A stretch of DNA of 58,756 nucleotides from Alphaproteobacteria bacterium (GTDB lineage Bacteria; Pseudomonadota; Alphaproteobacteria; Rickettsiales; UBA1997), in contig JAUROA010000032.1 in NCBI GenBank assembly GCA_030835745.1, positions 1 to 58,756 on the forward strand, written 5' to 3'. The notes below the pieces were generated by a model. It was not told where the DNA came from, ran no database searches, and was given only the letters and a program-made list of their open reading frames with translations. Positions within the stretch are counted from its first letter, which is position 1, and each line of letters begins with the position of its first letter. Below are positions 53,387-54,607 of this stretch, piece by piece. The position numbers and the translations under genes are program-made.

Positions 53387-54607
53387 ATGTTATCTCTTTA
53401 TATATGCAAACCTCACCAAGATAAAGAAAGAATATTATTGTTAGAAGGTTTGCAATTTTTAAAGACAGATTGTTTAGGGATGGTTACATCTAGATGTTAT
53501 AATTTATTTAATAAAATTTCAAAATATTATACTTCAGAAGATGATGCCAAAGATGGCAAAAACCCTTTCAAATCTGAAAATGAATTATTAATTAGCAAAA
53601 CTCTTTTTCGCAATAGTGAAATTAAAGGTTTAGTGTATGATGATTGGGAGTTGTTTCAAAATAAAGATTTATTTAATAAATTTATTGATAATATATCTAG
53701 CTCTTATGAAGTTTATAATGAGCCTAAACGTGACAAATTAAGAATCAATGCACAAACAATTTATTTGCAAGCATCCATTAAAAAATTACAAAAATTATTA
53801 AATATTTTAGAAAGATTTAATGAAATAGATGAGAATCATTTAGTCTTGCGAAGTGAGAGACTTATTAGTATTCAACATGAGGCCAATAGAAATGAATTAT
53901 CAGATATTATAAACATTATATGTGCAAGATTTAGCGAGGATCCTAAGGATTGGAAGCGGCATTTAACTCAACTTAATAAGTATAAAAGTATGGTTGAGCA
54001 AGAATTAAAAGATCATGAAGAACTTCATTATGAATTATCAAACAATTTAAGTAATAAAGATAATCCTTCATTAAAGTATTATTTTGTTCTTAAGAGTATT
54101 AACCCAGATAATAAGGATGATGATTATTGCGATATAACAGATTTTATAAATAAAATTACTTCTAACAATCAAGAAGGCAAAACATCTTATGACACATTAA
54201 TTGAATATGCTCAAAAGATCTTATCATATAATCTCGCAACAACAAAATTAAATAAAGGAGAAGATGATCATGATTTAAAAGTAGAGATAAATCGTCAAAA
54301 ATCATTATTTATTCAAGAAAAATCAATTCCAGATTTTGTTTTAGATTTGATTTGCGATGATTCTTTTAAGAGTAAAGTAGATTATGATATAGTTTCTAAC
54401 AGTGCAAACGACTTGCTAGAAGAGTTGAAAGATCAGCAGGGGAATCATGATATAGTTTCTAACAGTGCAAACGACTTGCTAGAAGAGTTGAAAGATAAGC
54501 AGGGGAATCATGATATTGATCCAGGTCCTAATAATAAAGGAGTGATAAGTCCAAGTTGTGAAAGCTTTGTAAAAAATAGATGCCCTCAATGTTGCGTAAT
54601 TTCTTAA
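53387..54607 (+). CDS. Hypothetical protein with a C-terminal CaaX box (CVIS) and an internal 21-aa tandem duplication; candidate host-prenylated effector
   Basis: The protein ends ...KNRCPQCCVIS-stop, with the CaaX box at 54593..54604. It has no signal peptide or TM helix, a helical K/E/N/D-rich body, and I recognise no family. Confidence 0.65.
   Translation: MLSLYICKPHQDKERILLLEGLQFLKTDCLGMVTSRCYNLFNKISKYYTSEDDAKDGKNPFKSENELLISKTLFRNSEIKGLVYDDWELFQNKDLFNKFIDNISSSYEVYNEPKRDKLRINAQTIYLQASIKKLQKLLNILERFNEIDENHLVLRSERLISIQHEANRNELSDIINIICARFSEDPKDWKRHLTQLNKYKSMVEQELKDHEELHYELSNNLSNKDNPSLKYYFVLKSINPDNKDDDYCDITDFINKITSNNQEGKTSYDTLIEYAQKILSYNLATTKLNKGEDDHDLKVEINRQKSLFIQEKSIPDFVLDLICDDSFKSKVDYDIVSNSANDLLEELKDQQGNHDIVSNSANDLLEELKDKQGNHDIDPGPNNKGVISPSCESFVKNRCPQCCVIS
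54386..54511 (+). repeat. Two tandem 63-bp copies (62/63 identical) inside the CaaX-protein gene
   Basis: Copy 1 is 54386..54448 and copy 2 is 54449..54511. They differ only at cag/aag (Q/K) and encode DIVSNSANDLLEELKD(Q/K)QGNH twice. Confidence 0.9.

Follow-up and report, generated by a model that had tools for sequence, protein, structure and literature searches.

Contig JAUROA010000032.1 (assembly GCA_030835745.1), a stretch of 58,756 nucleotides that we analyzed as a whole and call the window, carries towards its right end an open reading frame (ORF) for an orphan protein with a Cys-aliphatic-aliphatic-X (CaaX) box at its C-terminus. The gene lies in a locus ordered GDH, pntA-like, ftsZ, purD, thiE, mreD, PBP2, atpD, atpC, fixS, CaaX gene, dnaK, FTR1 and ankyrin protein, with dnaK convergent to it (coordinates are collected in Table 1). 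The protein ends ...SPSCESFVKNRCPQCCVIS followed by TAA, and the last codons (54581-54607) are TGC (C399), CCT, CAA, TGT (C402), TGC (C403), GTA, ATT, TCT and TAA. Its final four residues, C-V-I-S, fit Cys-aliphatic-aliphatic-X, the kind of ending seen on host-prenylated effectors. Counted from C403, the other cysteines of this region stand at -1 (C402), -4 (C399) and -12 (C391). C403 is the cysteine predicted to be farnesylated, X being Ser, and C402 and C399 are predicted sites of S-palmitoylation.

These features had been pointed out in a sequence-only reading of the window, and most of what it said of the ORF stands. The ORF is real and reads ...KNRCPQCCVIS-stop, as given there. Of the extra cysteines that it placed at -1, -4 and -7, the first two exist but the third does not; the next cysteine upstream is C391. 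Its description of a charged, helical protein with no signal peptide agrees with our results: the highest mean over 19 residues in the Kyte–Doolittle profile is 1.16, so that no hydrophobic segment, signal peptide or transmembrane segment is seen in it, the isoelectric point is 5.1, the net charge is -16 and the structure is predicted to be all-helical. Nor does any Pfam or NCBIfam family reach its curated threshold, in keeping with the earlier failure to recognize a family. Bacterial C-terminal sorting signals (LPXTG, PEP-CTERM, GlyGly-CTERM and others) were also considered, and the protein has no hydrophobic helix, signal peptide or NCBIfam match that would point to one. The protein is acidic overall, with the last 20 residues slightly basic (+1 to +3) across alleles. 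At the other end, ML[ST]LxI is kept in marine orthologues, which supports the start codon at 53387.

Table 1. Features of the CaaX locus and ankyrin-repeat genes of the window
Feature	Position	Strand	Description
CaaX-tailed orphan protein, ORF	53387..54607	+	Complete; ATG start, 406 residues and TAA stop
N-terminal helical body, residues 1-352	53387..54442	+	Presumed effector module
Tandem repeat of 63 bp	54384..54516	+	2.1 copies, 98% identical; 21-residue unit DIVSNSANDLLEELKDxQGNH
Acidic, disordered, indel-rich linker, residues 353-398	54443..54580	+	From predicted local distance difference test (pLDDT), charge and alignment
Cys391, fourth cysteine	54557..54559	+	In a PxCxx[FY][VI][KR]N stretch; not conserved in all alleles
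Tail C399-P-Q-C402-C403-V-I-S	54581..54604	+	Contains invariant positions of alignment A3
Upstream intergenic region, 305 bp	53082..53386	+	AT-rich; presumed own promoter
Hairpin, 15-bp stem	54765..54801	.	Between the convergent CaaX gene and dnaK; 1 found versus 0.2 expected
318-residue ankyrin-repeat protein	10160..11116	+	No signal peptide; Pfam Ank_2, E = 6.8e-24
Large ankyrin-repeat protein, C-terminal 341 residues	57730..58756	-	Frame open to window end; two genes from the CaaX gene

Relatives of the protein are few. A word-indexed search of 5.8 billion proteins found a single, near-identical match, P0001, which stems from a sediment metagenome, differs from the window protein solely in having one repeat copy fewer (385 versus 406 residues) and lies in the same gene order. 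Exhaustive searching of 1.84 billion representatives with HMMER brought in P0002 (E = 7.5e-14, 30% identity) as well as P0004, and profile searches combined with cluster look-ups added P0005, P0006 and P0018-P0027. The orphan family thus comprises four clusters at 90% identity among the 5.8 billion proteins, and because there are only these four, we take it to be confined to one narrow lineage. All members are placed between atpC/fixS and the convergent dnaK. Scans of genome contigs with the CaaX protein, and of metagenome contigs with the protein and with A3, an alignment of six family sequences, gave no relatives. Likewise, among the matches listed, none of 80 GTDB loci fetched via AtpD had a relative or the synteny atpC-fixS-X-dnaK. 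Closer genomes may exist in GTDB.

Across this family the tail is essentially frozen. Every complete C-terminus ends CxxCC-[VI]-I-[SL]: RCPQCCVIS in the window allele, SCKSCCVIL in P0018 and in marine loci L082 and L088, SCKGCCVIL in P0005, SCKRCCVIL in P0021, and SCKGCCIIL in P0006 and P0022-P0025. Identity over the whole protein is 27–28% between the window and marine alleles and 68–77% between marine allele types. C399, C402, C403 and I405 are among the invariant columns of A3, and the stop codon falls exactly three codons past the CC pair in all alleles. At all three tail cysteines, alleles differ synonymously between TGT and TGC. Of the seven other cysteines in the window protein, one (C179) is invariant; C391 is missing from the P0022, P0024 and P0006 alleles. 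The tail is the best-conserved segment of the protein and adjoins the most variable one. From these alignments, the tail cysteines appear to be under purifying selection, being kept in orthologues across four independent alleles as a chance ending would not be. The terminal residue alternates between Ser and Leu within the family. By textbook rules, Ser at X favours farnesyltransferase and Leu favours geranylgeranyltransferase I; both endings are competent for prenylation.

The copy in L088 (GCA_038141345.1, JAYQHY010000002.1) loses the tail by a frameshift, and SCKSCCVIL is readable in another frame. In this contig nearly all genes of the syntenic block, including atpD, dnaK, purD, PBP2 and the ankyrin gene, are in fragments, which suggests that the assembly is error-prone.

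How often would such an ending arise by chance? With the amino acid composition of the window as model (Cys 1.16%, Val, Ile and Leu together 24.6%), the probability of a C-a-a-X ending is 0.7–1.2e-3 per protein. One or two such endings are therefore expected in a genome of 1,000–1,500 genes, and a lone one is not significant. The sequence-only reading had proposed comparing the frequency of CaaX endings across the proteome with chance. Carried out for the 49 genes of the window, this comparison finds the present ORF as the sole case, with 0.03–0.06 expected. The full pattern CxxCC[VIL][VIL]X has a probability of ∼1e-7, and its conservation in all divergent orthologues places the tail above chance. 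Hence a CaaX ending, uninformative alone, becomes informative when its end-anchored conservation is checked across syntenic alleles, and the same approach is applicable as a metagenome-wide screen. The ORF itself is not a chance frame, since simple arithmetic (at 29% GC, ∼8% of random codons are stops) gives a probability of ∼1e-15 for 406 random open codons, and four diverged lineages have preserved intact frames of 406-501 codons.

The constancy of the tail contrasts with the rest of the gene. The CaaX proteins of the window and L082 are 30.3% identical, and those of neighboring genes 60–99% (DnaK 99.4%, AtpD 95.8%, FTR1 95.6%, FtsZ 75.9%, MreD 60.5%). A comparison of two marine strains tells more. 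Marine loci L082 and L089 encode ThiE, MreD, PBP2, AtpD and AtpC that are 99.0–100% identical, yet their CaaX proteins share 75%. At the nucleotide level, identity is 98.5–100% in the flanks, 91–95% in the first kilobase of the gene and 61–72%, with gaps, in the linker, and it returns to ∼100% within roughly 400 bp. We calculated dN and dS for this pair by the method of Nei and Gojobori. The flanks (1528 codons) gave dN of 0.0011, dS of 0.030 and dN/dS of 0.04, whereas the CaaX gene gave 0.163, 0.148 and 1.10, respectively, a dN ∼150-fold above that of the flanks. For the first 350 codons, dS was 0.036, equal to that of the flanks, with dN of 0.066 and dN/dS of 1.86. Other marine pairs showed dN/dS of 0.9–1.0, and values for the first 350 codons ranged from 0.88 to 1.86 among marine alleles. 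Between the window and marine alleles dS is saturated (>1), yet the frame, the N-terminus and ∼70 invariant columns persist. Because of these conserved elements and the long frames in four lineages, we read the gene as functional, with a body that appears weakly constrained or positively selected and a tail that appears strongly constrained.

Divergence from L082 also changes stepwise along the window. Over 43929-58753, nucleotide identity is ∼75% from GDH to PBP2, 88% for atpD-atpC-fixS and 91% for dnaK-FTR1-ankyrin; at the protein level, the FTR1 permease is 95.6% identical and PBP2 75.5%. This step may reflect recombination around the hypervariable gene or merely different constraint.

The protein body is best described as helical. 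AlphaFold2 gave a poor model from the single sequence (pLDDT 38.7). With the six-sequence alignment, overall pLDDT rose to 55, with helices at pLDDT 60–93 over approximately residues 120–350, and the last 54 residues (353-406), with pLDDT below 50, are predicted to be disordered. The linker is the least alignable part of the family, with large indels. The copy number of its tandem repeat differs between assemblies, and marine alleles have unrelated linker repeats, also of variable copy number (406 versus 462 or 492 residues). Despite this variation, the segment from -90 to -21 carries a net charge of -4 to -12 in all alleles. Searches for homologous families or folds gave little. The best Pfam hit of the CaaX protein, IFT57, scored 17.8 bits against a cut-off of 40 and is sub-threshold coiled-coil noise; NCBIfam and PADLOC gave no match, PHROGs gave one marginal match of unknown function (E = 0.0025), a profile search of the PDB gave none, and the best Foldseek hit in the PDB had E = 0.29 and a TM-score below 0.2. 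The latter search lends no support to a SNARE-like protein, considered by analogy with LseA of Legionella. No F-box or ankyrin match was found by Pfam in the CaaX protein or its relatives.

The flanks suggest that the gene is transcribed on its own, with the intergenic region of 305 bp upstream and a terminator hairpin before convergent dnaK. Consensus matches alone point to promoter-like hexamers, at 53059-53087 and 53128-53156, and the 25 found are a modest excess over the 17 ± 4 in shuffled sequence. The hairpin sequence is conserved in marine loci and is probably a bidirectional terminator. A blastn comparison of 53101-54767 with L082 detected no similarity, which resumes at 54767. An Rfam scan of 52900-54900 gave no match. 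Immediately upstream, at 52917-53081 (+), lies a FixS/CcoS-like ORF for a 54-residue membrane protein that shares its first 8 bases with the end of atpC and is 98% conserved in marine relatives; a cbb3-oxidase maturation peptide is an unusual partner for an ATP synthase operon.

The organism that carries the gene can be placed only roughly. Window GC content is 27–33%, and that of L082 is 29.9%. AtpD is 86–87% identical to that of two freshwater metagenome-assembled genomes (MAGs) and, among the matches listed, 78–81% identical to that of many Pelagibacterales and other alphaproteobacteria. A neighbor-joining tree of AtpD joins the window and the marine relative to these two freshwater MAGs, beside MAGs labelled 'uncultured Rickettsiales' and outside Pelagibacterales. 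We therefore dropped an affiliation with SAR11/Pelagibacterales, although the tree is a crude one from a single gene and, because AT-rich alphaproteobacteria attract each other, is weak evidence either way. The marine relatives come from sample TARA_067_SRF_0.22-0.45 (SAMEA2620979) and from runs ERR594313 and ERR594325. The same samples yielded two MAGs of Candidatus Gamibacteraceae, of 1.1–1.3 Mb and 28.5–29.2% GC (Schoen et al., PMC9352585). Within the host-associated 'crown' Rickettsiales, Gamibacteraceae form the sister group of the ectosymbiont Deianiraea; they have nucleotide biosynthesis and no flagella, and an ectosymbiotic life has been proposed for them (PMC9352585). Type IV secretion systems are almost universal in the order (PMC10847448). 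The producer of the CaaX protein may be a Gamibacteraceae-like Rickettsiales bacterium. Together with the two ankyrin proteins described below, the AtpD tree and the coincidence of samples are leads to a producer that may live with or in a eukaryotic host.

Besides housekeeping genes such as purM and purD, the window encodes transporters, parts of a type IV pilus, a pilin-like protein of 2443 residues and two ankyrin proteins. The ankyrin ORF named in the sequence-only reading is the one at the left of the window (Table 1), and the second lies at the right end. The F-box-like ORF that had been paired with it was not recovered: the scan of 30 window ORFs detected no F-box domain. The right-hand ankyrin protein is 63% identical to residues 681-1017 of a 1019-residue ankyrin protein of L082 (13734-16796, -) and is, on sequence divergence, a second fast-evolving candidate host-interaction gene. 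Contigs extending beyond the left end of the window held no new genes of interest.

Several other genes of the window deserve mention. Two proteins on the + strand, of 287 (12510-13373) and 2443 residues (13532-20863), begin like type IV pilins with a methylation motif or hydrophobic helix and carry Laminin_G_3 domains, of which the giant protein has four, as well as an F5/8 type C domain; a prepilin peptidase is encoded at 6803-7600 (-). The pair has the look of an unusually large adhesin, of the pilus tip or of the minor-pilin kind. At 31162-33530 (+), three consecutive ORFs encode a subtilase of family S8 (316 residues), a protein of no family (169 residues) and one with a weak porin-like end (290 residues), and look like one autotransporter-type subtilase in pieces or a split gene. 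The 280-residue ORF at 3998-4840 (+), which overlaps the end of the preceding purM-like ORF, has a fragment of an anticodon-binding domain and DUF5915. This makeup recalls the C-terminal portion of a class I aminoacyl-tRNA synthetase, minus the catalytic domain; the ORF is also conserved in further contigs from the same organism. Finally, 26724-27344 (+) encodes a membrane-anchored, retropepsin-like aspartyl protease of 206 residues (gag-asp_proteas, E = 1e-23); a retropepsin-like protease, APRc, is known in Rickettsia.

Taken together, these observations make it probable that the CaaX protein is a secreted effector that the host attaches to its own membranes by prenylating C403 and palmitoylating C402 and C399, the acidic disordered stretch serving as spacer and the helical body diversifying fast. 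It has the traits of an effector: it belongs to an orphan family, lacks a signal peptide and transmembrane segment, combines a helical body with a disordered tail and has fast-evolving ankyrin neighbors. The sequence-only reading had likewise seen a lipidation signal of an effector. That interpretation gains from the invariant, end-anchored tail in a gene with dN/dS of 0.9–1.9 (flanks, 0.04) and from spacing like that of RhoB and Ras2, but it loses the cysteine at -7 and the F-box.

The following sequence of events can be envisaged. The protein, which has no Sec signal, would be exported into a eukaryotic cell, probably a protist, most plausibly by a type IV secretion system (T4SS) of the Rickettsiales type. 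There, host farnesyltransferase (for the window protein, with Ser at X) or geranylgeranyltransferase I (for marine alleles, with Leu) would prenylate C403. Host RCE1 and ICMT would then trim and methylate the end, and host DHHC acyltransferases would palmitoylate C402 and C399, giving a stable anchor in plasma membrane or endolysosomes as for the CINCCKVL end of RhoB. The acidic, repeat-bearing, disordered linker would act as a spacer, and the helical body of ∼350 residues would act on a host target and diversify between strains. We infer all five of these steps, including export, lipidation, membrane destination and the nature of the host.

Several observations weigh against this reading. No gene of a T4SS, T3SS or T6SS (type III and type VI secretion systems) is present in the 58.7-kb window or the 20-kb marine locus, where only type IV pilus parts are seen. 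The genome is not extremely reduced, as purine-biosynthesis genes and transporters are found in the window. Marine relatives were recovered from plankton fractions of 0.22–0.45 and 0.45–0.8 μm, which fits free small cells, and the assignment to Gamibacteraceae is drawn from sample coincidence, GC content and a single-gene neighbor-joining tree. For the conservation test itself, only four distinct alleles of one narrow lineage provide few independent data points, and a gene-wide dN/dS of ∼1 is equally expected of unconstrained drift. Moreover, in one marine allele a 1-nt deletion splits the gene into ORFs of 219 and 249 residues. The six contigs shown (L082-L087) have it, out of eight that carry P0004, all from Tara-derived assemblies; the intact version, P0018, comes from other assemblies. 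The gene is thus dispensable in at least one marine population.

The site of this deletion, L082 9975-9990, reads GGATAAAAAAATAT (as in L083-L087) where L088 has GGATATAAAAAATAT, and the loss of the nucleotide brings a TAA into frame. Neither programmed frameshifting nor slippage of transcription at the A7 run of L082, both of which we considered, fits: slippage within the A-run would leave the TAA in frame, and the sequence does not form a canonical X_XXY_YYZ heptamer. We take the site as a plain 1-nt deletion relative to L088.

This disrupted allele, the dN/dS and the one or two lone CaaX ends expected per genome would all suit a decaying or non-functional gene, whose shared tail is residual ancestry or chance. 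We consider this very improbable, given that long frames have been kept in four AT-rich lineages, that frame, N-terminus and invariant columns have outlasted saturation of dS, and that the tail is best conserved right beside the most variable segment, with synonymous changes in its cysteine codons. A functional gene could nonetheless serve the bacterium alone. One such possibility is a fast-evolving, lineage-specific protein that is not delivered at all but acts at the surface, in phage interaction or in a conflict system, its Cys-rich hydrophobic end binding the cell's own membrane or a partner. Phage-receptor and defence loci, too, are typically hypervariable between strains amid conserved flanks, the lineage is found in small-cell plankton fractions and the window also holds a locus for a giant pilin-like adhesin. 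Yet with no signal peptide, lipobox, transmembrane helix or known C-terminal sorting signal, the protein has no route to the bacterial surface. Nor is there a PADLOC match (the one PHROGs match is marginal), no partner gene is visible beside this monocistronic gene, and the exact spacing of a eukaryotic dual-lipidation signal is left unexplained. We judge this account unlikely.

Conserved vicinal cysteines at the C-terminus also occur in bacterial enzymes such as MerA and thioredoxin reductases. The tail might then be an intrabacterial metal-binding or redox arm, like that of MerA, the SCCS or GCUG tails of thioredoxin reductases or a CxxC-based Zn/Cu site, its likeness to a CaaX box being coincidental. 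CPQC and CKSC are indeed CxxC motifs, three to four cysteines fall in the last 16 residues, and the lack of a secretion system in the window would be no obstacle. But an arm of this kind needs neither exactly three residues after the CC pair nor an aliphatic pair among them, and both are invariant amid upstream indels. Such arms also serve a conserved catalytic domain, whereas the body here has no recognizable fold or cofactor motif and evolves at dN/dS of ∼1. A Cys4 zinc site in particular was rejected: since C391 is absent from the P0022 and P0006 alleles, there is no conserved Cys4 metal site. We regard a metal or redox arm as quite unlikely, and the host-lipidated effector remains our preferred interpretation.

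A broader scenario can be put forward more tentatively. It is possible, though we would sooner doubt than assert it, that a globally distributed uncultured lineage, possibly Candidatus Gamibacteraceae, injects a strain-hypervariable effector into protists and hijacks their prenylation and palmitoylation through a tri-cysteine tail of the RhoB/Ras2 type. If so, the invariant tail, the fast body and the repeat-length polymorphism of the linker would be traces of an arms race still under way with the host, and the locus would testify, at the level of sequence, to access of the lineage to the host cytosol. Our search of the literature on Rickettsiales and CaaX found no natural CaaX effector (one Wolbachia paper uses an artificial CaaX tag), so that this would be the first reported in Rickettsiales-like bacteria as far as that search goes. 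Host prenylation of bacterial effectors has been established in a few cultivated pathogens (Legionella, Salmonella). Were the tail lipidated, this lineage would deliver proteins into the eukaryotic cytosol. The tail would then offer a cheap, testable handle on the lifestyle of an unculturable planktonic and sediment lineage, and the gene would be a case in nature of an effector that diversifies between strains while its targeting signal stays fixed.

The closest counterparts of the tail are those of dually lipidated eukaryotic GTPases. Human RhoB ends CINCCKVL and is isoprenylated and palmitoylated; this 8-mer by itself, provided that it is lipidated, delivers fluorescent proteins to endolysosomes in cells of humans, amphibians, insects and fungi (PMC4160200). 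The spacing C-x-x-C-C-a-a-X at the extreme C-terminus is identical in RhoB and in the bacterial family (PMC4160200, PMC2780327), and by analogy an endolysosomal destination can be predicted for the bacterial protein. The first aliphatic position differs, being K in RhoB and V or I in the family. In yeast Ras2, which ends CCIIS, the CaaX cysteine is farnesylated, the adjacent one is palmitoylated and the pentapeptide is portable (PMC2173492). The window protein has CCVIS at this place and one marine allele CCIIL, but Ras2 lacks the extra cysteine at -4. The bodies are also different. RhoB is a eukaryotic GTPase and that of Ras2 a Ras GTPase, whereas the bacterial protein has no Ras/Rho match in Pfam and no sequence or fold match in the PDB that would indicate a GTPase domain. 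Judged by its sequence, the tail resembles those of dually lipidated GTPases in its CxxCC-a-a-X and CC-a-a-X spacing, and the protein is not a member of that group.

Among bacterial proteins, the comparison is with effectors that exploit the same host enzymes. AnkB, PelA-J and the SNARE-like LseA of Legionella are lipidated by the host at a C-terminal CaaX (PMC4951486, PMC7542358), and the CaaX effectors of Legionella pneumophila are translocated by Dot/Icm and prenylated in the host (PMC4951486, PMC7542358, PMC2916131). The S4TE program, which predicts type IV effectors of alpha- and gamma-proteobacteria, also counts a CaaX ending among its features (PMC3814349). Like the Legionella proteins, the CaaX protein lacks a Sec signal and ends in Cys-aliphatic-aliphatic-X, which in its case would act as a short-linear-motif mimic for anchoring on host membranes; with LseA it also shares a helical or coiled-coil body, in general character only. 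A further parallel is that AnkB of strain Paris loses its CaaX by a frameshift (PMC5506055), much as the gene studied here is disrupted in one marine population. There is no kinship in sequence or fold, however: the present protein has no F-box or ankyrin domain, its producer is an AT-rich alphaproteobacterium, and its tail carries a further two conserved cysteines, arranged as in RhoB. Salmonella SifA is likewise host-lipidated via its CaaX, with both a prenyl and an S-acyl group (PMC4951486, PMC7542358); its C-terminus, CLCCFL, receives a geranylgeranyl and an S-acyl group from host enzymes (Reinicke et al. 2005, cited in PMC4951486). The two share the logic of dual lipidation, with a prenylatable cysteine and a nearby acylatable one at the C-terminus, but SifA is delivered by a T3SS, is unrelated in fold and sequence and has a motif other than CxxCCaaX. 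The class of mechanism is therefore already known. What is new is the orphan protein family, the uncultured environmental lineage that carries it and the combination of an invariant targeting signal with a hypervariable body.

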